Part shown: in pieces, positions 16,972-58,182 of the stretch | Position numbering within the stretch: position 1 is the first letter of the stretch | Layout of the letters: each line of letters starts with the position of its first letter | Origin: an uncultured Mycoplasmatota bacterium | Lineage (GTDB): Bacteria > Bacillota_I > Bacilli_A > RF39 > UBA660 | DNA length: 64,000 nucleotides | Direction of reading: 5' to 3' | Assembly (NCBI GenBank): GCA_900546275.1 | Contig: URCH01000005.1 | Coordinates: forward strand, 7,828-71,827 | Translations under genes and position numbers: made by a program | The notes under the pieces: model-generated | Seen by the model: only the letters and a program-made list of their open reading frames with translations | The model's database searches: none | What the model was told of the DNA's origin: nothing

Positions 16972-19900
16972 ATGGACGATGATAGTATGGTAGAAACTAA
17001 AAAAATTGAAAAAGAATTTACTATAAAGTTTATATTAGCGTTTGCGTTAATATTCTTTTTTGCATGTCCATTTATGATAACTAAAGCAAATGCTGCAGGT
17101 CCAACATATGAATTTGAATATAGTGGAGATTATCAAACATTTGTTGTACCACGAAGCGGTATATATAAATTAGAAACATGGGGAGCACAAGGAGGCGACC
17201 GTGGAGCTAATAATGGTGGAAAAGGTGGATATACAACTGGTGAAGTATATTTAAAACGTGGAGATATTTTATATATATATGTTGGTGGTTCAGGAAAAAC
17301 ACATGGAGGATATAATGGTGGAGGAGCTCAACCTACTTTAAAAACGTATGGTGGAGGAGCTACAGACATTAGATTTGTAAATGGTGCTTGGGATAATGAA
17401 GCTAGTTTAAAATCAAGATTAATAGTGGCCGGTGGAGGTGGAACCGTAGGTGCTAGCAATAAAGTTGGTGGTGCTGGTGGATTAACTGGTGGTTCTTCTT
17501 CTGGATATGGAACTGGTGGTGTAGGTGCAACATTGTCTGGCGCTGGTTCTCTTCGTGCGGGATTTGGTTTTGGTGGAAGTGGAACTTCAGGTTCAGGAGG
17601 CCATGCTGGTGCCGGTGGAGGTGGCTGGTATGGTGGAGGTGGATCTACCCCAGATGGCTCTGCTGATGATGACCGTGGAGGTGGAGGTGGTTCAAGTTTT
17701 ACTTGGAACACTCAAACTAAACAATATGTTCCAACTGGTTATTCAGTTTCTACTGATTATTATATGACAAATGTTAATTATTCAACCGGTTCAAGAGCAG
17801 GAGATGGATATGCCAAAATAACTGCCCTAAAACTTGATGGAATAACTAATTTTGAAATTAATCGTGGAAATGTACCAATTGATTATAAATACAATTTATA
17901 TGAATACAATTTAACAATAGATAATGATGTTGAAAATATTAGATTTAACATTTTAACAGAAGATGGTTATACTTTAACACAATCAAATAGAAGTACTGAT
18001 ATGACTAATAATTTATCAGTAACAAACACAATAACTTTAACCGATGAAGAAACAGGAATTGTTCAAGTTTATACTGTAAATGTAAAAAAACAGAATGCGT
18101 ATTTAGAAAACCTTGGAGTAGTATCTTATGGATATTCTTATACTGGAAATTATGAAAAATTTTATGTTCCAGCAACTGGTATTTATACCTTAGAAACATG
18201 GGGAGCGCAAGGTGGACATCGTGGGAATAATAACGGTGGAAAAGGTGGATACGCTAAAGCAGAAATGTATCTAGTAAAAGGTGAAGTTCTTTACGTATAC
18301 GTTGGTGGAAGTGGATCTACCCTTTCACAAGATGGAAAAACAAAAGGATGGAATGGTGGTGGACACACTAACGGATACTATTCAGCTGGTGGTGTATGGA
18401 GTGAAACTACTAACATGTATGGTGGAGGAGCTACAGACATCCGTTATGGTGGAAATTCACTTTATAATAGAGTATTAGTGGCCGGTGGAGGCGGTTCAGT
18501 AGGCGCTAGCAATAAAGCTGGTGCTGCTGCAGGGTTAAGTGCTGATAGCGGCTGTGGTACTGGAGGTACTGCTGGTGCAATTAATGCTGCAGGTTCTTAT
18601 AGAGCTGGCTTTGGGTACGGTGGAAATGGTACTTTTGGAAACGGTGGCTATGGCGGCGCCGGTGGAGGCGGCTGGTATGGCGGTGGAGGAGCTAATCCAG
18701 ATGGCTCTGCTGATGATGATAAAGGTGGAGGTGGAGGATCCAACTTTGCCTTTACTAGTCAAAATAGTAAATATGTACCAGAAGGTTATCTAGTAACAGA
18801 TAAAAATTATTTAACTAATGCTACTTTATCAAATGGTAATGTAAGTTTTAAAAATCCAAGTGGAGTAACAGAAACAGGACATACAGGAAATGGGTATGTT
18901 AGAATCAGCCCAAAATTAATCAATGGTGTAAGTGATATAACTATTAATGATGGTGAAATTCCAATAGATTTTGATTATACAATATATGAATATCATATTT
19001 CAGTTTTAGATAGTGTAAAAGCAATAAATGTTAATTTACAACTAAATGAAGGTTATTCAATGGTTGAAAGTTACACTGGAAGTTATGATATTACAAATGA
19101 AAAACAATATGTTTATAGTGTAGATGTAAAAAATGATATTACAGGTTTGACAGTTAATTATAAAATAACATTTCATAAACAAAGTGATTATTTAATGAGT
19201 GGAACAACAGGTTCATATGGTTATACATACAATGGACTTCCACAAAAATTTGTTGCCCCAGCAGCAGGTATTTATACATTGGAAGCATGGGGAGCACAAG
19301 GTGGAGACCGTGGAAATAATAACGGTGGAAAAGGTGGATATTCTACAGGACAAATATTTTTAAATAAAGGACAAATACTTTATGTATATGTTGGAAGCTC
19401 TGGTAATGCTGGAGGATGGAATGGCGGCGGTAAAGCTGGGTACGGAACTATCTATGGTGGAGGAGCATCTGATATACGTATAGGTGGTCAATCTTTATAT
19501 AACCGTTTAATAGTCGCTGGTGGCGGTGGTTCAGTAGGATCAACAAATAATGCTGGTGGAGTCGGTGGAGGCTCAACTGGTGGTGCTGGAGCTGGAAGCT
19601 ATGGATCAGGAGCTGAAGGCGCATCGCAAATAAAAGCTGGAAATAATTACGGAACATTTGGACAAGGTGGCTCAGGTATAGCCGCAAATGGAGGCTACGG
19701 CGGCGGAGGCGGCGGTGGCTGGTACGGCGGTGGAGGAGCTGGTGTAGATGGCTCTGGTGATGATGATCGTGCCGGTGGTGGTGGTTCAGGATTTGTTTGG
19801 ACTAGTGCTAGTTCTACAACCGTTCCAAGTGAATACTTATTGTCATCTAGCCAATATTTAATGGAAGCTTCAACAAAAGCCGGAAATACTTCATTCCCAA

Positions 19901-22900
19901 ATACAACAGGTGGAACAGAAACAGGACATGAAGGAAATGGATTTGTAAAAATATCTTTCTCGTTATCATATGATTTTGATATTATCGTTAGTGACAATGT
20001 TACTTTGGATAAAGAATTTGACTATGATGTAAAAGATTACACTGGTACATTAGATAGTAACGATTCATCTTTAGTAACTTTTAAAGTTACAGATAGTGAT
20101 TCAATTTTAAGTGTAGATGGTGATGGAACTAGAGAAATTCATGTTGGTGATAACACATTTAATATAACAATTACATATATAAATGGTGCTGTTGAAGTAT
20201 TTAGTTATCATATCTATCGTGAAGCAAATGATATAGATTATTTAAATAATATATATTTTGATGAGCATTCTATATCTGAATTTTCAGATGTTTCATTTGA
20301 TAAGAACACGTATACATATAATGTTAATTTACCGTACTATATGGACGAATATGATTTAACTGTTGACAAAGGTTCATCAGATCAAATCATCACAAATATT
20401 GGACATATATCTAATAAAAGTAATTCTTACAGTATACCTATTTCAGTAACAAATGAAACAGGTACAAGTACAAAAATTTATACATTAAATATTAACTTAC
20501 CTCATTCTAGTAAAATAAAAAAACTAACATTTAATAGTAGTGGTGGTTCAGTAATAGATTTTCCAATAACTGATGATAAAACAGAATTTGATATTGAATT
20601 TGAAAGTCATATAGCTTCAATTGATACACTAGTTGAACTTTACGATGGAGAAGCAAAAGCTACTGTATCTGGTGATGGATATATTCAATCAGATAAATTC
20701 GATATCATTATTACAGTAACAGAACCACATGTTGAACCTACAACTTATACTTTACATGCAAAAAGAGTTACTGTAAGTGGATATGAAAAAAATCTAGGAT
20801 ATAATGGTAACGTTCAAACAATAATAATTCCATATGACCATGAATATTTATTAGAAGTATGGGGAGCTCAAGGAGGAGCTGGAGGTGGCCGTGGAGGTTA
20901 CTCATATGGAACAATATATTTAGAAAAAGGAACAATTCTTTATGCTTACGCTGGTGGTAGTGGAGCAAATGGAGGATTTAATGGTGGTGGTTCTTCACGT
21001 GTAGGAAAAGGTGGAGGAGCATCCGATATACGTATTGGAACTGATTCATTATATAGTCGTGTAATTGTAGCCGGAGGTGGTGGCGGTCATGGTTCAGATG
21101 GCTGTGCTGCTGGAGCTGTTGGAGGAGGACTTAATGGTGGAGGTTCAAGTGCAAGTGGATCTTGTGGAACTCAAGCTGGTGGAGGTACTCAAACAGACGG
21201 TGGAACATACGGAAAATATAATAAAGCAATTGGTACAATAGGAAAATTTGGTATAGGCGCAAATGCACCAACTAGTGGCGGAAACTACTTTGGAGGTGGA
21301 GGCGGCGGCGGCTGGTACGGCGGTGGCTCTGGAGCAACAAGTGGTTGGTCAAATGGTGGTGGAGGTGGATCAGGATTTATATATACTTCTGAAACTGCCT
21401 ATGTAATTGAAAACGCAAAAGAATGGTTACTTGATAGCAAGTATTATTTAACAAATGCTAATACAGTTAGTGGTTCAAATTATTTTAAATCACCAACTGG
21501 TACAATGGAAACAGGACATTCTGGAAATGGTTATGTTAAAGTAACTATTCCATATCAACAAAGTGAAAATAATTTCTTAGACGGAATTATATCTAATAAA
21601 GGTGTTATGACACCAGAATGGGATTATAATGTCGACACATATTATTTAAAATTAAATTCAGATGATGTTGAAATTAATATTGAAGGTGTTCCTGCTGATA
21701 GTAAAGCAAGTGTTGTAGGAAATGGAAATTATACAATAGAAAGTGGAACAACAGAAATTCCTTTAGTAGTAACAGCAGAAAATGGATATACAAAGACATA
21801 TAAAGTTATTGTTACAAGAGATGCAGATACAAATGCGACTCCAAAAAATATTTTCATAAACGGATTAATAGAAGAGTATTGTGCAACTTTAGATGGTGCA
21901 TGTGATTATAAATTTGATCCTGAAATTAATACATATAATGTTAAAGTTCCATATACAATTAGAGAAATTGTTATGGTTGTTGATAAAGCTCACTATTTTC
22001 AAACTGTAAATGGTGATGGTTTGTATGAATTGTCTGGTGGAAATAATAAATTCCAAGTAGATGTTACAAGTGAAGATAAAAATCATACAACATCATGGAA
22101 TTATAATATTTATCGTGATATGGATGGAAATGCGGATTTAAAAGTTTTAAGAATGATTTCACCAGAATATGAAATAAACTATTCATATAATATAACTGAT
22201 TATTATGTAACTGTTCCAAATGAAACAGAGCGTGTAGAGTTAGAAGCAATTGCAGATGATGAAAATGCAACTGTAAAAATAGATTCATCTGATTTACAGT
22301 ATGGTGAAAATACAATTACAATAACTGTAACTGCTGCAAATGGAAATCAAAAACAATATAATGTTCATGTTAACAGATTAGAAAGTAATAACGCTTTCTT
22401 AAAAGAACTTACAATAAATGACATTACAGATTCAGAAAATATTAAAGAACTAGAAATTACTCCAACATTTAATAAGATGAACTTGAAATATAACATGGTA
22501 GTTGAAAATTCAGTTTCAAAAATATCATTGTCAGGTGTTTTGGAAGATTCATTACTTGCAACAGTAACTGGATTAGACGAATATAACTTAAATGTAGGTG
22601 CTAATACAATTAATGTAGTTGTAACCGCACAAGATGGAAGTACATTAACTTATACTTTTATAATAAATAGAAAAGCAAATGCAAATACATTATTATCTAG
22701 TTTAACTGTAGATGAAGCAAATTTAACAGAACCTTTTGAATCAACAAAATTTGTATATTACATGTATATAACAGGTGAAACTGAAAAATTAACAATCAAT
22801 GCAGTTCCAGAAGCTGATACATCAAAATATACAATAATTGGAAATTATAATAATTTACAAGCTGGAAAAAATGAAATTATAATCCGTGTAACAGCAGAAG

Positions 22901-25900
22901 ATGGTTCAACTTGTGATTATAAAATTATAGTAAATCGTGCAGGATATACAGATAATTATTTACAATCATTATTAGTAACAAATGGAAGCGAAATTTATAA
23001 ATTGACTCCAAATTTCGATCCATTATACGACAATTACACATTAACTATTCCAAATGAAGTTACAAATGTATTACTAACAGCAACAGCGGATGGAAACAAA
23101 CGTGCTAAAATAGGAAATAGTAGTGTATATGTTAAAAATATAAATTTATTGACAGAAAATCCTTCTAACAATGTTATAACTGTAACCGCAGAGGATGGTA
23201 CTGTTAGAACGTATACTCTTACTATAACTAGAGAAAAATCTGATGATAATTCTCTTAGTACACTAATTGTAAAAGACAATAACCTAATACCAAGTTTTAA
23301 TTCTGATACACTAGATTATAGTTTTACAACAAACGATCGTACTCTTGATATAACTGCAATTCCAACAAACAAATATGCAAAAGTTGAAATAAGTGAAAAT
23401 GCTAAATCACTTGTAGCTGGTTTAAATGTAGTAACAATAAAAGTAACAAGTGAAACAGGAAATGAAAGAATATATACATTAAATGTAACAAGAGAATTAA
23501 GCAATGATAACACATTAAAAACATTAGAAGTAAAAAATAATACTTTAACACCAAGTTTTGATCCAGAACAATTAGAATATAATTTAGATACATTTGATAA
23601 AAAAATTGATATAACTGCAATTGCTAATAATAAATATGCAACTGTAAAAATAGAGGGAGACCTTAATTTAAAAGAAGGAATAAATGATATCAAAATTTTG
23701 GTTACTAGTGAATCTGGTGATACTAGAGAATATATAATTCATGCTAATCGTGTTTTAGATGATAATAATTATTTAGCTAGTTTAACAACAAATGTAGGAT
23801 TTAATGAAACTTTTGATAAAGAAACATTAGAATATACAAAAACTACAGAAGATAAGCAAATTTCTATAAATGCAACATTAGAAAGTAAAAATGCAGTTTA
23901 TAGCATTACTGATGTAGATGGAAATATTATTACTAGTTTTCCACAGAATCTTAAACTAGGAGAAAATATTTTCTTCATTAATGTAACTGCCCAAAATGGT
24001 AATGTTAGAACATACAAAATAACTATTACAAATAATAAAAATAGTGATTCGAAATTATCTAATTTAACAACAAGTGAAGGAATTAATGAAACTTTTTCAC
24101 CAGACAGTTATCAATATACTTTAAGTACTAAAGAACATAAGATTACTATTACACCAATTCTAAGAAGTAAATATTCTTCATATAAAATTTATGATATAAA
24201 TGGTGATGTAGTATCAAATGAGGTTGAACTTACAACTGGACAAAATATATATATGATAATAGTAGAAGCAGAAAATGGTACAACTACAACATACAATCTT
24301 GTGGTTGATAGAAGTGCTAAAGATATTGCTACTATTGATAGTTTAGGTATAGATGTAACTCCGACATTTAATAAAAATAATTTTGATTATACAATTACAA
24401 CAGATGAAACAAGTTTGAATTTAGAAAATATAGTTTTAACTGATTCATATTCAACTTATACAATTTCTGGTAATAGTAATTTTAGTAATGATAGTACATC
24501 AACAGTGACAATAAAGGTAACAAGTGAAGATTTAAAAGTTACAAATACATATACAATTGTTGTAACAAAAATAGTTTCTACTGATCCTAGATTAAGTACA
24601 TTCGAATTAAATAACTATGATTTTAATCCTGTTTTTGATAAAGATAAAACAGAATATGAAGTATTTGTTCCAAATGGTTTACAACAAGCTAGTTTAAAAT
24701 TAAAAACATTAAAAAATACTTCAAAAATCAAAAGTATTATGATAAATAATTCAGAACAAGTTGTTAGTGAAATAAATAGTTTTGAAAATAATGTTTCAAT
24801 TCCTGATGTTTCTTCTAGTCCAACTATTACAGTTATAGTAGAAGCAGAAAATGGAGATGAAAAAACTTACACTTTAACTATTAGCAGTGAAGATCTAATA
24901 AACAATTATCTATCAACTTTAAATGTAAGTTGTGGTAATTTAGAACCTGCATTTGATAGAACAATAAATGAGTATATTGTATTTACAGATAGTTCAACTA
25001 CTTCATGCAATGTTCTATCAACACCAGAAGTTTCTATATCTACAGTTGAAGGAAATGGTGATTATAATTTTGATGCAAATGCAAAATATTTACTTGTTCC
25101 TATAACTGTTACATCTAGTAGAGGAGAAAAAAGAGTTTATAATGTAAAAATCAGGAAACCATTGTCTAATGAATCAAGATTATCAAGTTTAGATTTGATT
25201 GGAAATACATTAACTCCTTTATTTGATAGTGATACGTTTGAATATTCAGTAACAGTTTCAAATAATATTAGCAAACTTAATAAAGAGTCATTTACTTATA
25301 CAACTATTGATCCAGATAGTGTAGTAACATTCCCAGAAATTAATTTAAAATCAGGAAATGTAACACAGTATGTAATAACTTCTAAATCAGAAGATGGAAC
25401 AACTGAATCAAAATATACATTAAATGTAACAAGAGAAAAATCAAGTAATACTATCATCACAGAAGTAAATATTGATACTTTAGGAAATACATATAAATGT
25501 GTTATGGATCAAACAACGAAATCATGTAATGTAACGCTTCCTAGTAATACATCAAACTTTACTTTGAATGCTACATTACCAGAAGGTGCAACTGTAAATC
25601 CTTCTAACCCTTCTAGTCATATTTTTGATGAAGAAGATAATAGCAAGACAATATCATTAGTAGTAACAGCTGAAGATGATACTGAAGATACATATACTGT
25701 AAATGTAAATAGAGCTGAATCATCAAATAATGATTTATTGGATCTAAAAGTTAATTATGTTTCATTACCAAATTTTTCATCACAAGTTTTAGAATATGAT
25801 AAAACTGTGTTAGGTACAATGAGTCAAGTAATGATTTCAGCTACACTTGCAGATAAGAAAGCTACTATTGTAACTGATTTAAGTCAACCATTTAATTTGG

Positions 25901-31413: not shown

Positions 31414-31414
31414 A

Positions 31415-31451
31415 AGGAATTTTAATTTTAAATAATTAAAATTCTTTTTTT
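31415..31451 (+). terminator. Intrinsic terminator after the giant gene
   Basis: AGGAATTTTAATT (31415-31427) pairs with AATTAAAATTCTT (~31434-31446), followed by a T-run to 31451. Confidence 0.6.
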
Positions 31452-31656
31452 GTTTAATTAGTGATATATATAGTTTAGATATTAATAATTTTTCACTAAT
31501 GTTACTTATTATATAATTAATAATATTCATTTTTATAAATTAAATATTTAGTTTAATTTTATAATGAAAATTCTATATTTTTTTGCGAATTTTGTAGAAA
31601 AAAAACGAAAAAATTGATATACTTGTATAGAATAGTAAAGGTAGGATTGTCGTGGT

Positions 31657-34600
31657 ATGAAAAATGATAAAAAGTATTTTAAACATATCTGTTCATTGTT
31701 TATTTTATTTATTACAATTTGTTTTACAAATGCAAAGGCAGATACAGCTCATAACTTAAATATTAAAATGATTAAGTGTGATGAATCAAAATATAATTCA
31801 TTCGCAACACAAAATGATTATAAAAGTTGTTACAATGATTATGTATCAGGAAAACTTTCATCATATGTAATTAATACAGGTGATGAAGTGGATACTGGAA
31901 CTGTAATTTTAACAATCTTAAATTATACACCAGGGAGTCCTCAAGTAATAACAAGTATTAATACTCGTTTAAATATTGATACCGATGTTTTAACACCAAT
32001 AGTAAAAACAAATGGAAGTCTTTTATATTACCAAACTACTTATTGGCCTGAAGATTCAAATTACTCTACAAGTTTTAACTATAATTCGACTTCAGGAATA
32101 ATAGGTGGTTCATTTGTTGATAGTGAAGATGTTCCTTTGACAGAAGAAACAGAACTATTATATTTTTTCTTAAAAATAAATGATTCTGCTACAGGAACAA
32201 TTCCTATTGAATTTTCAAAAAAACCAGGAGATAATGATATGACTGATTTTGATGGAAATCAATATGAGTTTACAACTACTGATGCGAATGTAAAAATACC
32301 AGGAGAATCATTATCACATGATGCTTCACTTGGAACATTAACAGTAACAAATGGATCTACAACTTATCCACTTTCTCCTGAGTTTGTATCAGGAAGTGTA
32401 GATAATAAATCATATACTGCTGTAGTTCCAAATGATATAGAATATATTAACTTAAATGCAACAGCAAATCATAGCAAGGCTTCAATATTAAGTGGCATTT
32501 TAGGAAAAAATAACATTAATGTTGGAGAAAATAGTTTTACAATTACAGTAACAAGTGAGTTTGGTAACATTGAAGTTTATACATTAAACGTATATAGATT
32601 ATCAAATGATGCAACACTTTCTTCAATTAATTTAACTAATGGTATAAGTTTTGGAAATTTAATTAGTGGAACTTATAGTTATTCAACAACAATACCTTAT
32701 GCCATAACTTCTACATCAGTTTCTGCAACTCCTACTCATGCCAATGCTTATGTTGATAGTGGACTTGGAACATGGAATCTATCTAATTCTGGAACATTAT
32801 CAAATAATAAAGTTTTAGTTGTAAAAGCAGAAAACTGTCTAAGTAAATACTCAAGTGTACCAGGTAATAGTTGTACATCTCAAAATTATAATTTAACAAT
32901 TAATCGACAAGCAGCATCAGATAATAGTTATTTAAAAAGTTTAACTGTTGATGGTGTAAGCGTTAGCGATTTTAACAAAACCAAACAAGAATATGATTTA
33001 GGAACAGTAGCAAATAATAAATCATCAATGTTATTAAATGGTTTAGTTGACGATACAGGCAAAGCAAGTGTTTCAGGTCTTGGAACAGTAAATTTAAATA
33101 TTGGAGAAAACAATTTCACAATTACAGTAACAGCAGAAGATAAATCAACAAGAGAATATAAAATTAAAGTATATAGATTATCAAATGAAAATAAATTATC
33201 TAGTTTAACTATAACATCTTCTCCTCAAGCTACAATGTCTCCAGCATTTACTTCAACATTTAATGGAACTTATACATATAATTATGATGCAACTGTTACA
33301 GATATTACAGTAAGTGCTACTGTACTTGATACAGGAAAAGCAAGTGTATCAATTTATGATTTAGAAAAAGGTGAGTCATCTTCTTCAGCAACACTTAATA
33401 CACAATCAAAAACTTTTGGAATAGAAACTAAAAATGTTTATGTAGTAGTAACAGCAGAGGATGGAACAGTAAATACTTATACAATAGATTTAACTAGAAC
33501 AAAATCATCAGATAACAGTTTAAAATCTTTAATAATAGATAATGGAACATTAACACCTTCATTTAATTCAACAACAAGAACATATACAGCAGAAGTAGAA
33601 GGTAATGTAACTTCAATTAATGTTAATGCAATACCTAATTCATTATATGGAAAAATTAAGAGTATAACTGGTAATACTAATTTGAATTTTGGTAATAATC
33701 AAATAGAAATCATAGTAGAAGCAGAAAATGGAAATACAGCATCTTATATTATTAATGTAACAAGAAAACAATATGATATTTCAACACTAGATGATATAAA
33801 AATAGATGGTGTAAGTATAGAAAACTTTAATAAAGATACTAAAGAATATGATTTAAAAACAGTAAATTTTGAAAAAGATAGTATTAACATTGAAACAACA
33901 AAAAGTAATAGTTATGCAACAGTATCAGGCGACGGATTAGTGTCACTTAAAACAGGTGATAATAAAATAGTCATTACAGTAACTGCACAAAATGGTATAG
34001 ATAAATCAGAATATGTATTAAATTTATATAGAGAAAAAAATAATGATACTTCAATATCAAATTTAAAAGTTAAAGGCATAGAAGCAAAAAATACAGATGT
34101 TGGTATTTATGAAGTAACAGTACCAAACGATGTTACTATCCTTACTCCAAGCGATGTAATCTTTGATTATCCAAGTGATGCAACAATAGTAAAAAGTCAA
34201 ACATTAACTCTATTAACTACTGAAGTTAATGACTATCGCTTTAAAGTTATTGCAGAAGATAGTACAGAACAAGAATATTCAATAAAAGTAACTAGAACAG
34301 CTTCAAATGATTCATCTTTAAATAAAGTTACTTTAATTATAGGAAACGATGACAGCAGATATTGCTTAATGGATAGTGATAATACTTGCCGTATTGAAGT
34401 ACCTGTAGATACATTACAATTTACTTTAGAAACAGATATAGCAAGTACAGCATCTGTTGTACCATCAGATGATACTGTTCACTCAATGCCAGCAAGTGAA
34501 TCATCAAAAAGTATTACTTTAACTGTAACGGCAGAAGACGGAACAACTACTGTTTATACAGTTAATGTTGAAAGACAAAAATCATCAAATGCAAATTTAT

Positions 34601-37600
34601 CAGACTTAAAAGTTAATGGACAAACAATAGAAGGGTTTAATTCATCAAAGCAAACATATGAAATATCAGTTCCTGGAACTATAGATAAGGCTCTTATAGA
34701 AGCAACTGTTGAAGATACAGATAAAGCAGTAATAACTACAGATTTATCAAATCAATTTGATTTAGAATTTGATAAACAAAATAAAATTGAAATATCAGTT
34801 CAAGCTGAAAATAAAACAGTAAAAACTTATACAATTTATATTACCAGAAACCATAGACAAGATATTACTTTAAAAGACTTAACAATTAATGGTGTAACTA
34901 TATCAGATTTTACTTCAACAAAAGATGAATACACTTTATCTGAATTACCTTATAACACACATCAACTTAACATAGTAGCAACTCCAAATGATGAATTGGC
35001 TACAAAAACAGGTGATGGACTAGTAAGAATTAATACTGGAAATAACGATATAACCATTACAGTTTATGCACATGATACAAGCATATATCATGATTATGTG
35101 ATACATGTTAGTCGTAAACTTAATGATGATGCAGGAATTAAAGAAATAAGTTTATCTGGAAATAAAGCAACATATAATAGTTCAACTAAAAAATATGAAG
35201 TAACAGTACCAAACAATATAGAAGAAGTCAATGCAAGTAATTTAATCGTTAATGTAAATGATCCAATAACATCTAGTGATAAAAAAGCAACCGTAGCATT
35301 TGATACAACACCTATTTTAACTACATCAACAAATGATATAACAATTAAAGTAACAGCAGAGGATGGAACAGTTAAAGACTATATTTTGTCAGTAACAAGA
35401 ACTAAATCAAATATTGCAACATTAGATAGTTTAACAGTAACAAATGGTTCATTTAATCCAAGTTTTTCAAAAGATACATTTGAATATTCAGTAACCGTAC
35501 CTGTTGAAACTACTGAATTTAATGTTTCCGGAGTAACAACAGAAAGCCATGCTAATATAACATCAGGCGTTGGTCATTATACAATGACTGAAAGTAGTAC
35601 AAGAGTTGAAGTAGTAGTTGTAAGTGAAGATTTATCAGTAACAAATACATATATATTAAATATTACTAGAACAAAATCAAGTGTGAATACACTTTCAGAT
35701 ATTACTGTAAGTGAAGGAACATTAACACCTACTTTTGCTTCTAACAAAACATCATATACTGTAAATGTAGCAGGAGATATAGATTCAATAGAAATAGGTG
35801 CTACTTTAACAGATAGTAGAGCTAAAATATTATCTGGAACAGGTACACATCAATTAAATGTAGGCAGTAATACAATTACTATAGAAGTTGAAAGTGAATC
35901 TGGAGCAAAACAAAACTATACAATAAATGTTATTAGAGCTAAAAAACTAAATAATAATTTAGCAACCTTAAAAGTAGATGGAATAAGTGTTAAAGACTTT
36001 GATAAAGATACACTTGAATATACATTAGATGATGTATTATATTCAAAAACTAGTATTGATATATCTGCCACTGCTGAAGATGAAGATGCTACAATTGAAG
36101 GTGTAGGAACAAAAGGATTAAAAACAGGTTTAAATGAATTTAATATAGTTGTAACTGCACAAAATGGTGATAAGAAAACATATACAATTAAAATAAATAG
36201 AGCTAAAAATGATAATGCTAATTTAAGTTTACTAGCGGTAAGTGGATATGTTTTAGTTCCAACATTTGATAGTGAAATTTATGACTATGAAGTAACCGTT
36301 GATGCAATAAAAGAAAAATTACTTGCATCTGAGGTAACAGCAGAACCAGAGGATAGCAATGCAACAGTAGAAAAACCAGAAGAAATTTCTTTATCAACAA
36401 CTAATGATAATTATTATATAATTAAGGTAACTGCAGAAAATGGAAATGTAAAAACATATACAATTAAAGTAATTAGACCAAAATCTAGTGATGCAACTAT
36501 TAAAGAAGTTAAATTAACTGGTGCTACAATATCTCCAACATTTACTCCAAATAATAAAGATTATGTATTAACTGTCCCTTATGGAAAAACAGATTTTAGG
36601 GTAGAAGCAATTGCTAATGTTAAAACAACTACTATTACAGGAAATGGAAATTATAAATTGTCTGATGGAAAAGTAATAATAACTTCACAAGCAGAAGATG
36701 GAACTGTATTGGTATATAATTTCACAATAGTAGAAGCACTAAGTAATGATGCAACGTTAAGTGATTTAAATGTTAGTGGATATCCTTTGGATAAAACATT
36801 CTATTCAACAACACTTAATTACTCAATAGGAGATTTACCTTATGGAACAACACAACTAAGAATTAATGCAACACCTAATAACGCATTGTCTACTATTGAA
36901 TATTACGTAGATGGTGTAAAACAAGAAAGTAATATAGTTAATATACCTGAAATTCTAGGCTCAAAAACTATTTCAGTTAAAGTTCTAGCCAATGATAAAG
37001 TTACAACACAAACTTATAATATTAGTTATAACATTGTAGCTTCTGATAATTCATATTTAAGTAAACTAGTTTCATCAGTTGGTACAATTGACTTTATAAA
37101 GACAAATTCAAATTATAACATTACTGTTGACAATGAAATTACTAGTGTTGACTTAACTTTAGAAACTGAAGATAAAAATGCAACAATAACAGTTAATGGA
37201 GCTACATCATTTACTCCAAAAACAGTTACTATTTCAGATTTAAATATAGGAAATAATTCAATTAGTATATTAGTAACTGCTCAAAACGCAACAACAAGAA
37301 CTTATAATTTAGTAATTAAAAGATTAGATAAACAAGCTTCAAATGATGCATATTTAAGTTCATTAAGTGTAGATGGTTATGAATTTGATAAGGAATTTAC
37401 AATGAATCAAGAAGAATATTCAATTGGACAAATTCCGTTTGAAACAGATAAACTTACAGTAAATGCAACAGCTAATATGGGAACATCAAAAATAAGTTAT
37501 TTAGTAAATGGAATTAAACAAGATAGCAATGTTGTAACAATTCCAAAAATAGAGGGTACATCAGCTATAGTTGTTCAAGTAACAGCAGAAGATGGAAAAA

Positions 37601-38364
37601 CAGTAAAAAATTATAAAATAACTTATACAAAAACAGCTTCAACAAATGCATATTTAAGTAACATAATAGTAAGTAAAGGAAATTTATCATTCAACAAAAA
37701 TACTTTTGCTTATACTGTAAATGTTGATAGAACAGTTTCTTCAATAGATGTAACTGCAATGACTGAAGATAGTACAGCTATCATGAAAATAAATGGAGTG
37801 ACATATACATCTCCACATACAATAACTATTTCTCCACTTGATGCTGGTACAACTGAATTAATAATTTTGAATACAGCTCAAAATGGTACTGTACTAACAT
37901 ATAGAGTAACTATCATAAAAGAAGCAGATCCTGCAAGTACAATAACATCAAATGTTTTTGGTCATAAAATAGCTAATGGTTATATAAAAACTGTTAAACT
38001 TGGAATAACTGGATTAGACTTAAAAAATCAATTAGATAATGAAAATAAATATCTTGAGATTTGGTCTTCTGATGAAACAAGAAAAATAAATGACAATGAT
38101 ACCTTAGCTACAGGAATGATAGTTAAATTAATAATAGATAATGAAGAAAAAGATAGAAAATATATTGTAATTAAAGGTGATACATCTGGTGATGGTGAAA
38201 TAGACTTATTTGATGCAGTAAAAATCTTAAATCATTATTTAGTTCGTACATTATTAGATGGTGCATATAAAGAAGCAGCATATGTAAACGATGATACAGA
38301 AATAGATTTATTTGACTCAGTAATGATTTTAAATCATTATTTAGGAAGAATATCATTACACTAG
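31657..38364 (+). CDS. 2235-aa secreted adaptor-like protein: N-terminal cohesin-like module, about 20 cadherin-like repeats, C-terminal dockerin
   Basis: Signal peptide ..CFTNAKA/DT. Repeats end in ..VYTLNVYR, ..YKIKVYR, ..YTIKINR and similar. The stop TAG is embedded in the next gene's TAGGAGG RBS. Confidence 0.9.
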   Translation: MKNDKKYFKHICSLFILFITICFTNAKADTAHNLNIKMIKCDESKYNSFATQNDYKSCYNDYVSGKLSSYVINTGDEVDTGTVILTILNYTPGSPQVITSINTRLNIDTDVLTPIVKTNGSLLYYQTTYWPEDSNYSTSFNYNSTSGIIGGSFVDSEDVPLTEETELLYFFLKINDSATGTIPIEFSKKPGDNDMTDFDGNQYEFTTTDANVKIPGESLSHDASLGTLTVTNGSTTYPLSPEFVSGSVDNKSYTAVVPNDIEYINLNATANHSKASILSGILGKNNINVGENSFTITVTSEFGNIEVYTLNVYRLSNDATLSSINLTNGISFGNLISGTYSYSTTIPYAITSTSVSATPTHANAYVDSGLGTWNLSNSGTLSNNKVLVVKAENCLSKYSSVPGNSCTSQNYNLTINRQAASDNSYLKSLTVDGVSVSDFNKTKQEYDLGTVANNKSSMLLNGLVDDTGKASVSGLGTVNLNIGENNFTITVTAEDKSTREYKIKVYRLSNENKLSSLTITSSPQATMSPAFTSTFNGTYTYNYDATVTDITVSATVLDTGKASVSIYDLEKGESSSSATLNTQSKTFGIETKNVYVVVTAEDGTVNTYTIDLTRTKSSDNSLKSLIIDNGTLTPSFNSTTRTYTAEVEGNVTSINVNAIPNSLYGKIKSITGNTNLNFGNNQIEIIVEAENGNTASYIINVTRKQYDISTLDDIKIDGVSIENFNKDTKEYDLKTVNFEKDSINIETTKSNSYATVSGDGLVSLKTGDNKIVITVTAQNGIDKSEYVLNLYREKNNDTSISNLKVKGIEAKNTDVGIYEVTVPNDVTILTPSDVIFDYPSDATIVKSQTLTLLTTEVNDYRFKVIAEDSTEQEYSIKVTRTASNDSSLNKVTLIIGNDDSRYCLMDSDNTCRIEVPVDTLQFTLETDIASTASVVPSDDTVHSMPASESSKSITLTVTAEDGTTTVYTVNVERQKSSNANLSDLKVNGQTIEGFNSSKQTYEISVPGTIDKALIEATVEDTDKAVITTDLSNQFDLEFDKQNKIEISVQAENKTVKTYTIYITRNHRQDITLKDLTINGVTISDFTSTKDEYTLSELPYNTHQLNIVATPNDELATKTGDGLVRINTGNNDITITVYAHDTSIYHDYVIHVSRKLNDDAGIKEISLSGNKATYNSSTKKYEVTVPNNIEEVNASNLIVNVNDPITSSDKKATVAFDTTPILTTSTNDITIKVTAEDGTVKDYILSVTRTKSNIATLDSLTVTNGSFNPSFSKDTFEYSVTVPVETTEFNVSGVTTESHANITSGVGHYTMTESSTRVEVVVVSEDLSVTNTYILNITRTKSSVNTLSDITVSEGTLTPTFASNKTSYTVNVAGDIDSIEIGATLTDSRAKILSGTGTHQLNVGSNTITIEVESESGAKQNYTINVIRAKKLNNNLATLKVDGISVKDFDKDTLEYTLDDVLYSKTSIDISATAEDEDATIEGVGTKGLKTGLNEFNIVVTAQNGDKKTYTIKINRAKNDNANLSLLAVSGYVLVPTFDSEIYDYEVTVDAIKEKLLASEVTAEPEDSNATVEKPEEISLSTTNDNYYIIKVTAENGNVKTYTIKVIRPKSSDATIKEVKLTGATISPTFTPNNKDYVLTVPYGKTDFRVEAIANVKTTTITGNGNYKLSDGKVIITSQAEDGTVLVYNFTIVEALSNDATLSDLNVSGYPLDKTFYSTTLNYSIGDLPYGTTQLRINATPNNALSTIEYYVDGVKQESNIVNIPEILGSKTISVKVLANDKVTTQTYNISYNIVASDNSYLSKLVSSVGTIDFIKTNSNYNITVDNEITSVDLTLETEDKNATITVNGATSFTPKTVTISDLNIGNNSISILVTAQNATTRTYNLVIKRLDKQASNDAYLSSLSVDGYEFDKEFTMNQEEYSIGQIPFETDKLTVNATANMGTSKISYLVNGIKQDSNVVTIPKIEGTSAIVVQVTAEDGKTVKNYKITYTKTASTNAYLSNIIVSKGNLSFNKNTFAYTVNVDRTVSSIDVTAMTEDSTAIMKINGVTYTSPHTITISPLDAGTTELIILNTAQNGTVLTYRVTIIKEADPASTITSNVFGHKIANGYIKTVKLGITGLDLKNQLDNENKYLEIWSSDETRKINDNDTLATGMIVKLIIDNEEKDRKYIVIKGDTSGDGEIDLFDAVKILNHYLVRTLLDGAYKEAAYVNDDTEIDLFDSVMILNHYLGRISLH
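31741..32299 (+). other. Cohesin-like N-terminal module of the adaptor (tentative)
   Basis: Beta-rich module of about 185 aa with a cohesin-like pattern (..GTVILTILNY.., ..TEETELLYFFLKINDSATGTIPIEFS.., ..YEFTTTDANVKI). Weaker match than the two anchor cohesins. Confidence 0.45.
38173..38352 (+). other. Dockerin module of the adaptor
   Basis: Duplicated segments DTSGDGEIDLFDAVKILNHYLVR and NDDTEIDLFDSVMILNHYLGR. Confidence 0.85.
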
Positions 38365-38374
38365 GAGGTAAAGA

Positions 38375-40540
38375 ATGAAAAATAAAAAAAGTACAAAAAT
38401 ATTAATGACGTTAATTATCAGTCTTTCAACATTCTTTTATACGTCAATCGCAAAAGCTGCAACAGCTACTGTTGGATTCGATGGAAATTCAACAGTAAGT
38501 GTTGGTAGCAATATTACTATAAAAATGTATGTTACAGGAGGTAGTAATATAGATGGTGGAATAGTAAGTGTAGGTGGTAATTTAACATTTGATTCAAATT
38601 ATTTAGAATATGTATCTGCAAAAGGTATTCAAACTCCATATGCATTTCAAATTAACACAAATGCAAATTACATTATAGCCGGCTTAGATACTACATTATC
38701 AAATGGAATAACTTCGAAAACACAAGTGCTTACTATAACATTTAAAGCAAAGAAAAAAGGAACAACGCAGGTAAGTCTTACTAATGCAAAACTTAGCGAT
38801 GTTTCATCAAAACTTTCAACAACAGTTGTTCCAAAAACAATAACTATAAATGATTCTAGTACAATTGTAGATCCAGGTAATACTAAAAGTAGTGATGCAA
38901 CATTAAAAAGTTTATCAGCAAGAGGTTATACATTAAGCCCATCATTTAATCCAAATACTACTAGTTATACTATAAAGGTACCAAATGATGTAAGTACTGT
39001 AAAATTAGATGGTAGTGTAAATAATAGTAATGCTAAAGTAAGTGGGCTTGGTAATATAAGTTTAACTGGGGATACAACAACTGCTACTATAAAAGTAACA
39101 GCAGAAGATGGAACAGTTAAAACTTATACAGTTAAAATAGAAAAAGAAAGTAAATCTACGGTTGAAAAAAGTAGTGATGCAACATTAAAAAAATTGGATG
39201 TAAGTGGATATACACTAACTCCTACATTTTCAAAAAATGTAACAACTTATTCAATGAAAGTAAAAAACAATATTACAGCACTAAATGTAACAGCTATTGC
39301 TAATGATAAAAATGCTACTGTTTCAATTTCTGGAAATAAAAATTGGAAAGAAGGAAATAACACAATTACAATTCGTGTAACTGCTGAGGATGGTAGTGTT
39401 AATACATATATTGTAAATGTAGAAAGAGAAGTATCTAGTAGTAGTACAGTTGTAGCTACTAAATCTAGTGATAATTATTTAAAAAAACTAATAATTAATT
39501 CACCATATGAATCTGATCAAGAATTTGATAAAAATATAAATAATTATAATATAACTGTACCAAATGAAGTAGAAAAATTAGATATTAAAGCTATTGCAAA
39601 TAACACAAAATCAAAAGTAGAAATAACAGGAAATGAAGATTTTAAAGTTGGAAAAGTAAATGTAGTTGAAATTAAAGTAACAGCAGAAGATGGTAGTGTA
39701 AGAATTTATTCATTAAATGTAACACGTAGTATTGTAACAAGTGAAACAGATTTAAAAAATATTGAAATAGATGGTACTTCAATAAATCCTAAATTTGATC
39801 CAAATACTTTAGAATATACTACAAATGTTGATTCAAAAACAGATAAATTAGATATTAAAGCAACACCAAGTAACAGTGATAGTAAAGTAGAAATAATAGG
39901 AAACGAAAACTTAAAAGAAGGACACAATACAGTATTGATTAAAGTTACAGATAAAGAAGGTTTTGTTAAATATTATACAATTGATGTCGTAAAAGAAGCT
40001 TCTAAAACAGCAACTTCTAATTCAACATTGTTTGGATTAACTCCACTACAATTTGGATTTATGTTAGGATTATTAAGTTTAATATTACTATTAATAATTC
40101 TAATAATAGTTTTATCTCGTAAAAAGAAAGAGCAAGAATCAAAAATCGCACCAGTTATAGAAGTTAAACCAGAATTTAACTTTGGCTCTAAAAATTCAGA
40201 TGATGATGTAATCCATGGTGATTATAATCAAAATAGTGATATAGATAATAAGGATACAACCCCAAAATCTATACCGGAGCCAAAAATTAATGTGTATGAC
40301 GCTGATTATGAGGATAATCTTCCATATGATCCATATGATGAAATAGTTACAAAAAGAGAAGTAATTGATGCCATACATGAAGCGATGAAAACAAAAGATC
40401 CTTCAAAATTAAAGATGTTATTGCAACAAGATGCTTTGAATCAAGCAAAAAAAGAACTAAAGCAAAAAGAAGAAATGAATCAAAATAATGAATTAAATTC
40501 AGAGGAAACTAAAGAACAAATCGATGATGAATGGAGGTAA
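38375..40540 (+). CDS. Membrane-anchored cohesin protein A (signal peptide, cohesin, 4 cadherin-like repeats, TM helix, about 140-aa acidic cytoplasmic tail)
   Basis: RBS TAGGAGGT. Signal peptide ..TSIAKA/AT. TM FGFMLGLLSLILLLIILIIVLS (about 40051-40118), then RKKK stop-transfer and a D/E/K-rich tail with a coiled-coil-like end. Confidence 0.88.
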   Translation: MKNKKSTKILMTLIISLSTFFYTSIAKAATATVGFDGNSTVSVGSNITIKMYVTGGSNIDGGIVSVGGNLTFDSNYLEYVSAKGIQTPYAFQINTNANYIIAGLDTTLSNGITSKTQVLTITFKAKKKGTTQVSLTNAKLSDVSSKLSTTVVPKTITINDSSTIVDPGNTKSSDATLKSLSARGYTLSPSFNPNTTSYTIKVPNDVSTVKLDGSVNNSNAKVSGLGNISLTGDTTTATIKVTAEDGTVKTYTVKIEKESKSTVEKSSDATLKKLDVSGYTLTPTFSKNVTTYSMKVKNNITALNVTAIANDKNATVSISGNKNWKEGNNTITIRVTAEDGSVNTYIVNVEREVSSSSTVVATKSSDNYLKKLIINSPYESDQEFDKNINNYNITVPNEVEKLDIKAIANNTKSKVEITGNEDFKVGKVNVVEIKVTAEDGSVRIYSLNVTRSIVTSETDLKNIEIDGTSINPKFDPNTLEYTTNVDSKTDKLDIKATPSNSDSKVEIIGNENLKEGHNTVLIKVTDKEGFVKYYTIDVVKEASKTATSNSTLFGLTPLQFGFMLGLLSLILLLIILIIVLSRKKKEQESKIAPVIEVKPEFNFGSKNSDDDVIHGDYNQNSDIDNKDTTPKSIPEPKINVYDADYEDNLPYDPYDEIVTKREVIDAIHEAMKTKDPSKLKMLLQQDALNQAKKELKQKEEMNQNNELNSEETKEQIDDEWR
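38459..38864 (+). other. Cohesin module of anchor A
   Basis: ATATVGFDGNSTVSVGSNITIKMYV..GGNLTFDSNYLEYVSAKG..VLTITFKAKKKGTTQVSLTNAKLSD fits the cohesin pattern (bait strand, the YD..LE-type strand, the ..itFkak..G.. strand). Confidence 0.8.
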
Positions 40541-40545
40541 GGAAT

Positions 40546-42225
40546 ATGAAAAATATATTAAATAAAAAAATCAATTTTCTTATTCTTTCCTTCTTTCTTT
40601 TTTTGTTTCCAGTACTAACTGCTAAAGCAGATGGAACTGCAACAACAGGAATAAGTGGAAATAGTAGTGTATATGTTGGAAAAACAATAGATGTAGTATT
40701 ATACGTTTCAACTAACGCACCAATAGCGGCATTTCAAGGAACTTTAAAATATGATACTTCAAAACTAGAACTTGTTAGTCAGACGTCATTGGCACCATAT
40801 GAAATATCCTTAAATGGCTTTGTTATTGGAGGACTAGATTTAAGTGGAAATTCAGCAATAAATGGAAAGAAAAATTTATTAAAACTAAGATTTAAGGCTA
40901 AGACTGTTGGAAACACCACTATTACTTTTTCAGGCCCAAAACAGCCAGGAATCAATAACACCTCAGTTTCAACTTCTGGGGCAAGTAAAACCATTAGTAT
41001 TACCAATCCACCTAGTACAAATAATAATTTAAGTAGTTTATCTGTAAGTAATGGAAGTATTAATTTTAATAAAAATACAACAAGTTATAATATATCTGTA
41101 GATACAAATGTTACAAGTATAAAAATATCTGCCACTGCTGAAGATAAAGGAGCTAGTGTCTCTGGAACTGGTACAAAGAATTTAGGTTATGGTAATAATA
41201 AATTTAGTATAATTGTAACAGCTCCATCTGGAGATAAAAAAACATATACAATTACGGTAAATAGAAAAGATAATCGTAGTAGCAACAATAAATTATCAAG
41301 CTTAAGTGTTGATGGCGCTGAATTAAGTCCTAAATTTAATTCAAATACAAAAAGTTATACTGTATCTGTTCCTTTTAGTATTTCAAGTTTAAAAATAAAT
41401 GCAAAAGCAGATGATTCAAAATCAAAAGTAAGTATTTCTAATACAAGTATAAATGCAGAGGAAACAAAGGATATTAATATAACAGTAACAGCAGAAAATG
41501 GTAGTACAAATACCTATGTAATACGTGCTACTAGGGGTAAGGATCCAAATAAAGTTCTTTCTAAAAATAATAATTTGTCAAGTTTAAAAGTTTCTCAAGG
41601 AATATTAAGTCCGGCATTTAAAAAAGAACAAGATAAATATATTGTGTATCTTCCATATGAAGTCGATTCAATTAAAATTGATGCAACCGTAGAAGATACT
41701 AAATATGCAACTATAAAAATTGAAGGAGCAGAAAAGTTATCCACAGGAAATAATAATTACAAAATAATTGTAACAGCAGAGGATGGTTCTACTAAAACAT
41801 ATACTGTTGTTGTATCAAGAGGATTGAATATGACTGAAGAATCTTTAAGTAGTAATGTATATTTAAAAAGTATTACATTAAAAAAAGGTTCATTAAAAGA
41901 AAATTTTAATAAAGAAGTATTTGATTATACTTATACTGGAAGTGAAATTGAAGCTGTTCCTGAAGATGATAAAAGTACAGTTAATATAATAAATAGAAAA
42001 GACAAATCAATTATTATTGTAAAATCACAATCTGGTGATATTGGAGTTTATACGTTAACTAAATATAAATCTAATTTTATAAATATCATTATTTATATAC
42101 TTTTATCTTTAACAACAATTTTAAGTGCAACAGGATGTTATTTAATGAAAAACAAATTAAAAAAAATTAACCCTGATTTGAAAAATAAAAATAAGAAAAA
42201 TAAAGTAAATATTGATAATAAATAA
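40546..42225 (+). CDS. Membrane-anchored cohesin protein B (signal peptide, cohesin, about 4 cadherin-like repeats, C-terminal TM helix, short basic tail)
   Basis: I prefer ATG 40546, 6 nt after GGAGGTAAGG, over the track start 40531. Signal peptide ..VLTAKA/DG. TM FINIIIYILLSLTTILSATGCYLM (about 42075-42147) followed by a K-rich tail. Confidence 0.88.
   Translation: MKNILNKKINFLILSFFLFLFPVLTAKADGTATTGISGNSSVYVGKTIDVVLYVSTNAPIAAFQGTLKYDTSKLELVSQTSLAPYEISLNGFVIGGLDLSGNSAINGKKNLLKLRFKAKTVGNTTITFSGPKQPGINNTSVSTSGASKTISITNPPSTNNNLSSLSVSNGSINFNKNTTSYNISVDTNVTSIKISATAEDKGASVSGTGTKNLGYGNNKFSIIVTAPSGDKKTYTITVNRKDNRSSNNKLSSLSVDGAELSPKFNSNTKSYTVSVPFSISSLKINAKADDSKSKVSISNTSINAEETKDINITVTAENGSTNTYVIRATRGKDPNKVLSKNNNLSSLKVSQGILSPAFKKEQDKYIVYLPYEVDSIKIDATVEDTKYATIKIEGAEKLSTGNNNYKIIVTAEDGSTKTYTVVVSRGLNMTEESLSSNVYLKSITLKKGSLKENFNKEVFDYTYTGSEIEAVPEDDKSTVNIINRKDKSIIIVKSQSGDIGVYTLTKYKSNFINIIIYILLSLTTILSATGCYLMKNKLKKINPDLKNKNKKNKVNIDNK
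40630..41008 (+). other. Cohesin module of anchor B
   Basis: DGTATTGISGNSSVYVGKTIDVVLYV..QGTLKYDTSKLELVSQTS..LLKLRFKAKTVGNTTITFSG. Confidence 0.8.
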
Positions 42226-42230
42226 TATCA

Positions 42231-42260
42231 ATTAGTAAGTTTAATGCTTACTAATTTTTT
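42231..42260 (+). terminator. Intrinsic terminator ending the adaptor/anchor operon
   Basis: ATTAGTAAG (42231-42239) pairs with CTTACTAAT (42247-42255), followed by a T-run to 42260. Confidence 0.7.
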
Positions 42261-58178: not shown

Positions 58179-58182
58179 TAAT

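Follow-up and report, generated by a model that had tools for sequence, protein, structure and literature searches.

Four consecutive genes on one strand, g1 to g4, occupy positions 16972-42225 of a 64-kb stretch of DNA from an uncultured Mycoplasmatota bacterium (contig URCH01000005.1; the stretch as a whole is called the window here) and encode assembly and structural modules only. The open reading frames (ORFs) were recovered where an earlier note, made from the letters of this DNA, had placed them. We propose that this cassette probably specifies a three-tier surface fibre, rooted in the membrane and assembled non-covalently, which serves as an adhesin or tether. The analysis covers this one window of low-GC DNA (~25% GC); the wider genome, with any enzyme-borne dockerins, sortases and wall genes, lies outside the data. 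Human-gut metagenome contigs identical to the window are present in ENA ERZ919654 and Logan ERR414323. The genes and their modules, with the basis of each call, are:

16972-31413, + strand: g1, 4813 aa, proposed cargo (Pfam; repeat hidden Markov model, HMM)
17095-21558, + strand: g1 head region, four ALK/LTK-type glycine-rich domains among 5 cadherin-like repeats (Pfam PF12810)
21559-30690, + strand: g1 stalk, 33 contiguous cadherin-like beta-sandwich repeats, residues 1530-4573 (in-house HMM, Pfam PF12733)
30730-30921, + strand: g1 Big_2 domain (29 bits in isolation)
30946-31191, + strand: g1 X-module (HMM)
31192-31380, + strand: g1 dockerin, type A (HMM, Pfam Dockerin_1)
31657-38364, + strand: g2, 2235 aa, proposed adaptor (Pfam, repeat HMM, AlphaFold models)
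31741-32337, + strand: g2 N-terminal cohesin (N-cohesin), residues 29-227, as modelled (AlphaFold2 model, Foldseek)
37939-38175, + strand: g2 X-module (AlphaFold2 model, HMM)
38176-38361, + strand: g2 dockerin, type B (AlphaFold2 model, HMM)
38375-40540, + strand: g3, 721 aa, proposed primary membrane anchor (Pfam, repeat HMM, hydropathy)
38459-38860, + strand: g3 cohesin (Pfam/HMM)
38885-39997, + strand: g3, four cadherin-like repeats (repeat HMM)
40034-40129, + strand: g3 transmembrane helix, residues 554-585 (hydropathy)
40130-40537, + strand: g3 conserved cytoplasmic tail, residues 586-721, ~135 aa (alignment)
40546-42225, + strand: g4, 559 aa, proposed accessory membrane anchor (Pfam, repeat HMM, hydropathy)
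40633-41010, + strand: g4 cohesin (Pfam, 35.3 bits in isolation)
41011-42072, + strand: g4, four cadherin-like repeats (repeat HMM)
42073-42144, + strand: g4 C-terminal transmembrane helix, residues 510-533, with a short basic tail after it (hydropathy)

In the arrangement that we favour, g3, and here also g4, would sit in the cytoplasmic membrane via one transmembrane helix, each holding its single cohesin ~15-20 nm out on four cadherin-like repeats. The highly conserved type B X-dockerin of g2 would dock onto the g3 cohesin, and g2 would display its own divergent N-cohesin at the far end of 20 repeats. The type A X-dockerin of g1 would in turn bind the g2 N-cohesin, with the 38 repeats and four glycine-rich domains of g1 forming the distal end of a surface-exposed fibre; both contacts would be calcium-dependent. 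Immunoglobulin-like (Ig-like) folds measure ~4 nm per domain, and the extended g3-g2-g1 chain, with its 62 Ig-like repeats, would reach an estimated ~250-300 nm. The glycine-rich heads would most likely bind a target surface: mucus or glycans of the host, particles of food, or other cells. We arrive at this anchor-adaptor-cargo chain because of the gene neighbourhood and a modest covariation between modules, both set out below.

An in-house repeat HMM, trained on g3 and then iterated, counts 38, 20, 4 and 4 cadherin-like repeats in g1, g2, g3 and g4, and PF12733 matches the four proteins in tandem with 633.9, 421.2, 133.8 and 121.2 bits, above its curated cut-off. The sum of 66 supersedes the ~38 Ig-like domains from which the earlier note had estimated the length of a fibre.

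The largest protein, g1, runs from a signal peptide through glycine-rich domains alternating with cadherin-like repeats (domain 1, one repeat, domain 2, one repeat, domain 3, three repeats, domain 4, 33 repeats) to the Big_2 domain, the X-module and the dockerin. The repeat HMM leaves four gaps of ~265 residues in g1, and these are the glycine-rich domains, at residues ~42-288, 375-649, 738-1001 and 1267-1529 (the bounds being those of the gaps between repeats). PF12810 (ALK_LTK_GRD) matches g1 in four stretches (E 5.6e-132; 439.6 bits against a cut-off of 24.5), the best of which spans positions 7-242 of the 243 in the profile. A single-sequence phmmer search with one of the domains against the PDB returned no match, probably because of its composition. 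Each repeat of the stalk is found with an i-Evalue of 2e-11 or better, and PF12733 on g1 reaches E 2.7e-195. Dockerin_1 (PF00404) scores 23.1 bits over the full-length protein and 28.7 in isolation, with a cut-off of 22.9. Since the dockerin is C-terminal, the four glycine-rich domains would lie at the distal tip.

In g2, Pfam recognises Cadherin-like repeats only (E 6e-129), flanked by modules that had to be identified by modelling: the protein consists of a signal peptide, the N-cohesin, 20 repeats, an X-module and the type B dockerin. The N-terminal module has no Pfam match, whether scanned in the full-length protein or alone. Its AlphaFold2 model, built from an alignment of the family, has a predicted local distance difference test score (pLDDT) of 87.4 and a predicted template-modelling score (pTM) of 0.83, and the top 50 Foldseek matches of this model in the PDB are all cohesins (E 2.5e-8 to 5e-6), among them type I, type II, the A. 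fulgidus non-cellulosomal cohesin and C. perfringens NagJ. At the sequence level the likeness is faint: the family profile finds the cohesins 6kg8 and 6kgc as its best PDB matches (E 0.03), and hhalign aligns it to the g3/g4 cohesin profile collinearly and weakly (8.7% probability). Because the model is confident and its structural matches are exclusively cohesins, we read the module, as modelled, as a cohesin fold with an added helical insert between two invariant cysteines (module residues ~15-35; Cys13 and Cys30 in a 14-sequence alignment). The family is small. Word-indexed searches gave 2-5 proteins each, whether started from the g2 N-module, from its alignment or from the g4 cohesin; an exhaustive representative search, used instead, found 18 cluster representatives among 1.84 billion proteins, and in its members the module always follows immediately after the signal peptide.

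The other end of g2 was modelled as well. Its last 144 residues (pLDDT 91.1) are predicted to form a beta X-module followed by three helices; the helices superpose on known dockerin structures (2ccl_B, TM-score 0.93, root-mean-square deviation 1.0 A), and the top 28 PDB matches are dockerin or X-dockerin entries. Within the X-dockerin family PF00404 is matched by 9 of 10 members, at best with 3e-12. The X-module, ~80 residues of beta structure directly before both dockerins, aligns across the two dockerin types and has no convincing structural counterpart in the PDB. The two dockerins are each internally symmetric and differ strongly from one another at the helix residues known from solved complexes to touch the cohesin (TVADINK.KN against IDLFDAVKILNHY).

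The two remaining proteins, g3 and g4, carry the cohesins that Pfam does recognise. Cohesin (PF00963) scores 26.4 bits in the full-length scan of g3 (cut-off 24.1); for g4 the full-length scan gives Cadherin-like repeats, and the Cohesin match comes from scanning the terminus alone. Among solved sequences, the g3/g4 cohesin profile comes closest to the cohesin of C. perfringens NagJ (E 1.7e-4). The cytoplasmic tail of g3 has 48 invariant positions in 5 sequences, ends in WR and contains the motifs PEFNF.SKN and PYDPYDE.VTK.E.IDAI.EA..TKD.SKLKMLL; it has no significant match in Pfam, NCBIfam or the PDB, and its conservation suggests an intracellular partner. N-terminal signal sequences are visible by hydropathy, and none of the cassette's parts is covered by an NCBIfam model. 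Strain-level mosaics of g4 occur: in two metagenome relatives of 40546-41010 (P0006 and P0007) the signal peptide and the first ~25 mature residues are those of g4 in the window, and the cohesin core is of the type found at loci L005 and L006. This pattern suggests that alleles of the g4 cohesin are mosaic or have recombined, either inside one species or among close ones.

All of the module assignments in the earlier note that these searches could address withstand them. The HMM check it proposed matched Cohesin in g3 and g4, Dockerin_1 in g1, Cadherin-like in g1-g4 and ALK_LTK_GRD in g1, with the g2 dockerin falling below the cut-off. A secreted 4813-aa protein ending in a dockerin is borne out by the signal peptide and the Dockerin_1 score of g1; the description of g2 as an N-terminal cohesin-like module, about 20 repeats and a different dockerin agrees with the 20 repeats counted and with the modelled cohesin and dockerin. 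For g3 and g4, a signal peptide, one cohesin, about four repeats and a C-terminal transmembrane helix were recovered as described, except that the g3 helix is followed by the ~135-aa tail. Its statement that g1-g4 have no glycoside hydrolase (GH), carbohydrate-binding module (CBM), S-layer homology (SLH) domain or LPXTG signal also holds: Pfam finds no GH, CBM or SLH in the four proteins, LPXTG is not found in them, and GH and CBM matches are absent from the rest of the window as well. By module HMM scan, the three cohesins and two dockerins of the window are carried by g1-g4 only.

The layout of the genes indicates that g2, g3 and g4 form one unit. The g2 stop codon, TAG, overlaps the AGGAGG that lies 10 nt upstream of the g3 ATG, and at the next junction the g3 stop comes after GGAGG and before the g4 ATG, the two genes being 5 nt apart; the claim that both stops fall inside the next gene's GGAGG is thus literally true of g2/g3, and at g3/g4 the stop comes after it. 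Gene callers favour Met6 as the start of g1 (4808 aa instead of 4813 aa), and the 559 aa of g4 are counted from the ATG at 40546, within a longer 564-aa ORF that begins at 40531. A 243-nt spacer with a hairpin and a T-run separates g1 from g2. A consensus terminator scan missed the two AT-rich hairpins of the locus, and they were then evaluated by folding against shuffled sequences:

31412-31449, + strand: terminator-like hairpin and T-run, 3' of g1 (-12.2 kcal/mol, z -4.35, none of 200 shuffled sequences equally stable)
42230-42256, + strand: terminator-like hairpin and T-run closing the g2-g3-g4 unit (-10.6 kcal/mol, z -5.39)
42260-42287, + strand: promoter match, 12/12 with TG extension, after the g4 terminator (hexamer scan)

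Promoter-like hexamers are no more frequent in the window than in shuffled AT-rich sequence. Of the promoter and terminator that had been ascribed to g1, the terminator is therefore retained, and the promoter hexamers are indistinguishable from chance. The cassette is flanked by ordinary chromosomal genes, such as those for SecA, a hibernation factor and tryptophanyl-tRNA synthetase, and a tRNA array. The genes downstream of g4 (an HA-domain protein, an AMP-binding enzyme and a hybrid kinase) were considered as members and excluded, because the terminator and promoter intervene and because ORF sizes after g4 differ at locus L005.

The same modules recur together in other metagenome loci. We carried out the synteny survey that the earlier note had called for by scanning metagenomes with an alignment of the g2 X-dockerin and calling the architectures found with the cassette HMMs. 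This gave 73 loci, mostly on contigs named as human-gut, 12 of which have a g2 X-dockerin segment 100% identical to that of the window; the species itself thus recurs in at least 12 assemblies. An anchor-cohesin gene of the g3 type follows within 400 nt after g2 in 67 of the 73; the six loci without a called anchor include the truncated contigs L043, L067 and L068 and loci with sub-threshold HMM scores (L069, L075, L076). Among the 67 loci with an anchor, 53 also give a match to the g3 cytoplasmic tail. Where g2 is complete and enough upstream sequence is available, an X-dockerin gene lies upstream of it in 33 of 37 loci; g4 is optional, being present in 15 of the 37 loci that extend far enough. 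Viral contigs yielded no relative, and a phage-borne cassette was dismissed for that reason.

In the closest genome, 'uncultured Tenericutes bacterium UMGS484', which is listed among human-gut Tenericutes (PMC7301438), g3 is 65% identical and the order g1-g2-g3-g4 is the same. Loci L006, L007, L011 and L015 also share this gene order, with variations that leave the membership intact; L006 has a giant with glycine-rich domains followed by g0 (a small gene described below), g2, g3 and g4, and L015 has g2, g3, g4, g0 on the opposite strand and then the glycine-rich giant. At L007 and L008 the cassette lies between infB and rbfA. The g1-like protein of L007 (1127 aa) has no glycine-rich domain and carries an N-cohesin of its own. 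In this more distant relative (L007, L008 and L009) the cassette was also noted to sit inside the nusA-infB operon, and g3 is split there into a 203-aa cohesin ORF and a 424-aa ORF with repeats, transmembrane helix and tail (L007, ~14279-16425); the split is the same in three independent assemblies.

A fifth, small member, g0, which the earlier note had not included, lies just upstream of g1 in the window:

16438-16884, + strand: g0, 148 aa, N-terminally membrane-anchored, two invariant cysteines (orthologues, hydropathy)

Its transmembrane segment covers residues 7-38, and it has no match in Pfam, NCBIfam or the PDB. We count it as part of the cassette because orthologues with 34-55% identity recur beside the cassette (in L006, L007, L011, L015, L036, L073, L074, L075, L081, L086 and L087), in positions and orientations that vary among loci. 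Upstream of g0, on the - strand, an ORF at 15159-16127 has a weak integrase-core (rve) match below the Pfam cut-off and may be the remnant of an insertion sequence at the edge of the cassette.

The stronger arguments for pairing between the modules are architectural. As the universal, translationally coupled neighbour of g2, g3 is one of them. Others come from loci in which the glycine-rich giant is followed directly by a reduced partner: at L010 a 5643-aa glycine-rich giant with an X-dockerin precedes two proteins of 362-379 aa that consist of N-cohesin and X-dockerin only, as minimal adaptors would, and at L014 the giant precedes an N-cohesin protein that bears its own transmembrane helix. 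The anchor-adaptor-cargo reading of the earlier note agrees with the neighbourhood in the 73 loci and with these natural variants, which keep the parts predicted to interact.

Rates of change divide the modules into slow and fast. Mean pairwise identity is ~71-72% for the g2 dockerin, 62-63% for the g3 tail and 57-59% for the g3 cohesin, and 41% for the g1 dockerin and 34-36% for the g2 N-cohesin. Beyond a phylogeny proxy, the g1 dockerin covaries with the g2 N-cohesin (partial rho 0.71 over 8 distinct loci, the pairs being non-independent) and to a lesser extent with the g3 cohesin (partial rho 0.29, 8 distinct loci). Divergence of the g2 dockerin follows that of the g3 cohesin (rho 0.85-0.93, the higher value with 6 loci), and over 11 distinct loci it correlates equally with the g3 repeats (rho 0.91).

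Several observations weigh against the proposed fibre. The covariation of the g2 dockerin with the g3 cohesin vanishes under the phylogeny proxy (partial rho 0.20 with 11 loci), and mirror-tree support for this contact was dropped; the pairing of the two would then follow from adjacency and translational coupling only. The g4 cohesin has no assigned partner in the chain. At the level of individual modules, Dockerin_1 gives the g2 dockerin 20.6-20.7 bits, under the cut-off of 22.9, probably because a tyrosine occupies position 1 of the second calcium loop, which is itself atypical by sequence reading. The N-terminus of g3, scanned alone, has no Cohesin match, unlike the full-length protein. Finally, an adhesive role for the glycine-rich domain is drawn by analogy.

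The ALK/LTK glycine-rich domain of animal receptor kinases serves as their cytokine-binding part; for bacteria and phages, our literature search found no characterisation of its role. The same family is present in 'glycine rich family proteins' of C. difficile phages (phrog_1589, 5811 and 7388). Clostridium phage phiCD505 (L089, 6989-8554) and 33 other C. difficile phage records carry the domain, and the phiCD505 gene product has it in full (E 1.3e-46). In phiCD505, the single record inspected, the gene follows the tail-fibre and XkdX genes and stands just before the holin gene. A position between tail fibre and holin is typical of distal tail components, and, by analogy, hints at a role in surface recognition.

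Cohesin-dockerin systems classically organise enzymes, and the membrane cohesins, that of g4 especially, might mainly recruit hydrolases encoded elsewhere, in a minimal cellulosome- or amylosome-like scaffold that has g1 and g2 as two of many clients. The unassigned g4 cohesin and its mosaic alleles (P0006, P0007) would fit such a scaffold, as would the fact that only 64 kb of the genome is visible. We nevertheless consider it unlikely: with one cohesin per protein there is no multi-cohesin scaffoldin, the window has no carbohydrate-active enzyme (CAZyme), CBM or further dockerin, the related loci (scanned with the cassette HMMs only) show nothing except cassette-type modules, and the conserved neighbours of the cohesins are always repeat proteins. 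Chaining of N-cohesin/X-dockerin proteins head to tail, into indefinite fibres or an S-layer-like mesh, is another way to use the same parts. Both the g1-like and the g2 protein of L007 carry N-cohesin and X-dockerin, the small proteins with these two modules stand in tandem at L010, and a coat might be needed by relatives that have a thin wall or none (PMC10868615). Yet g1 of the window could only cap a chain, because it has no cohesin, and self-recognition of g2 is disfavoured because its near-invariant dockerin and fast-evolving N-cohesin change at very different rates; we regard a polymer of this kind as very unlikely.

It is also conceivable that the cohesin and dockerin folds no longer pair at all and that the four proteins act separately, binding host ligands or carbohydrates or serving a structural purpose. 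Cohesin and dockerin modules without a known role are widespread outside cellulosomes (Peer et al. 2009, as cited in PMC10066038), and the atypical second calcium loop of the g2 dockerin would be in keeping with a loss of binding. Against this, the strict co-occurrence of dockerin and cohesin genes, their translational coupling and the existence of adaptors composed of cohesin and X-dockerin only are hard to explain without pairing, and few parts of the cassette are as conserved as the g2 dockerin. We judge independent action highly improbable, and hold to a jointly assembled, membrane-rooted fibre as the probable product of the cassette.

How such a fibre relates to characterised systems can be seen module by module. 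Within the window it lacks the marks of a cellulosome, in line with the conclusion of the earlier note: the three cohesins are spread over three proteins in place of a multi-cohesin scaffoldin, the dockerins are not borne by CAZymes, there is no CBM, and transmembrane helices in g3 and g4 stand where a cellulosome has sortase or SLH anchoring to the wall. The closest precedent in principle is found in Ruminococcus, where an X-dockerin on a non-enzymatic adhesin binds a single-cohesin anchor (CttA/ScaE-type XDoc:Coh; PMC7456326) in a complex that bears load in the gut (PMC7456326). In R. flavefaciens (CttA-ScaE) and R. champanellensis (XMod-Doc:Coh), as proposed for the cassette, a non-enzymatic target-binding protein hangs by an X-module and dockerin on a single-cohesin anchor, and the cassette shares the X-module N-terminal to the dockerin on a non-catalytic cargo. 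The Ruminococcus anchor, however, is linked to the wall by sortase and is part of a cellulosome, with a small cellulose-binding cargo, whereas the cassette has membrane-helix anchors, an extra adaptor tier and a 4813-aa repeat giant with glycine-rich heads. Nor do the X-module and cohesin show homology to the type III (ScaE/CttA) modules, as 4iu2, 4iu3 and 4wkz match weakly (E 0.025-0.09) and superpose poorly.

The hierarchy of two specificities, a cargo dockerin for the adaptor cohesin and an adaptor X-dockerin for the anchor cohesin, is that of cellulosome scaffoldins (ScaA/ScaB/ScaC of Acetivibrio cellulolyticus; the type II CipA-SdbA pair of C. thermocellum), and cellulosomal adaptor and anchoring scaffoldins are the best structural matches of the g2 N-cohesin and g2 dockerin. 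Those scaffoldins organise enzymes, and have many cohesins, CBMs and SLH or sortase anchors, whereas the cassette proteins have one cohesin each. Outside cellulose degradation, a cohesin-dockerin pair is known from C. perfringens (NagJ cohesin; PDB 2w1n, 2jh2, 2ozn), where the modules join enzymes as parts of secreted glycoside-hydrolase toxins; the cassette, by contrast, has no catalytic domains and its cohesins are predicted to be membrane-anchored. The amylosome of Ruminococcus bromii (PMC4611034) is likewise a cohesin-dockerin assembly of a human-gut Firmicute that does not serve cellulose, but its dockerins are on GH13 amylases and none of the cassette genes is enzymatic. Giant tandem-repeat adhesins of the repeats-in-toxin (RTX) type (PMC7493085) also project distal ligand-binding domains on long beta-sandwich stalks; they are single polypeptides of the outer membrane, exported by type I secretion, whereas the stalk of the cassette would be made of three Sec-exported proteins, predicted to join non-covalently.

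The principle is thus known from Ruminococcus, the hierarchical adaptor logic from cellulosomes, and non-cellulosomal use from C. perfringens and genome surveys. What sets the cassette apart are the membrane-helix anchors, the g3 tail, the Cys-bracketed N-cohesin subfamily, the X-module, the giant stalks with glycine-rich heads, and g0. We found no description of such a system in the literature, in line with the earlier note, which had known of no characterised system combining cohesin-dockerin pairs with ALK-type modules and membrane-helix anchors.

Other features of the window were recorded in passing. A gene at its edge, on the - strand (271-876), belongs to the AgrB family, which takes part in peptide quorum sensing (E 1e-34). 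A row of genes at 9938-14940 may be a peptide-modification cluster; it comprises a leucine-rich-repeat protein of the BspA type, which has a zinc ribbon, then a radical SAM/SPASM enzyme and a 117-aa ORF, and last a membrane protein that also has a zinc ribbon. On the other side of the cassette, 12 tRNA genes at 57295-58539 (in the order Val, Thr, Tyr, Gln, Lys, Leu, Ser, Met, Asp, Phe, Arg, Pro) are followed by a gene for a MvaI/BcnI-type restriction endonuclease (58604-59344). At 59484-63905 (- strand), VTC-domain and DUF4956 proteins adjoin one of 980 aa in which lamin-tail domains are combined with a chitobiase C-terminal and a CotH kinase domain.

The gut lineages RF39, RFN20 and ML615J-28 are predicted to be thin-walled or peptidoglycan-deficient (PMC10868615, PMC7301438); two of these orders have no sortases (PMC10868615), and peptidoglycan synthesis is apparently deteriorating in them (PMC7301438). 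A membrane helix in the place of sortase or SLH anchoring, as we propose for g3 and g4, fits a lineage with a thin wall or none (gut 'Tenericutes', RF39/RFN20-like). One might go further and see in the cassette the main attachment organelle of wall-reduced gut Bacilli: a tether of ~0.25-0.3 um, modular in length and assembled outside the cell, whose g3 tail would couple to an intracellular partner, so that binding or pulling at the tip would be turned into a transmembrane signal or force, with g0 as a dedicated assembly factor. We think this extension distinctly unlikely as it stands; if true, cohesin-dockerin pairs would have been put to a new use, similar in function to the attachment structures of mycoplasmas and possibly serving to hold on to host mucus or partner cells.

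The cassette suggests that assembly parts of the cellulosome have apparently been reused for a purely structural, membrane-rooted fibre in uncultured gut bacteria that recur across metagenomes. In a host group with reduced walls and few known surface structures, it is a candidate factor for colonisation or attachment. The cohesin subfamily that it defines, with a helical insert between two cysteines, is new, as are the X-module and the mode of anchoring, and protein engineering could draw on its two apparently orthogonal cohesin-dockerin pairs. The cassette would also place the ALK-type glycine-rich domain at the tip of a fibre, alongside its occurrence in phage tail-region proteins, and a role of this domain in binding is directly testable.

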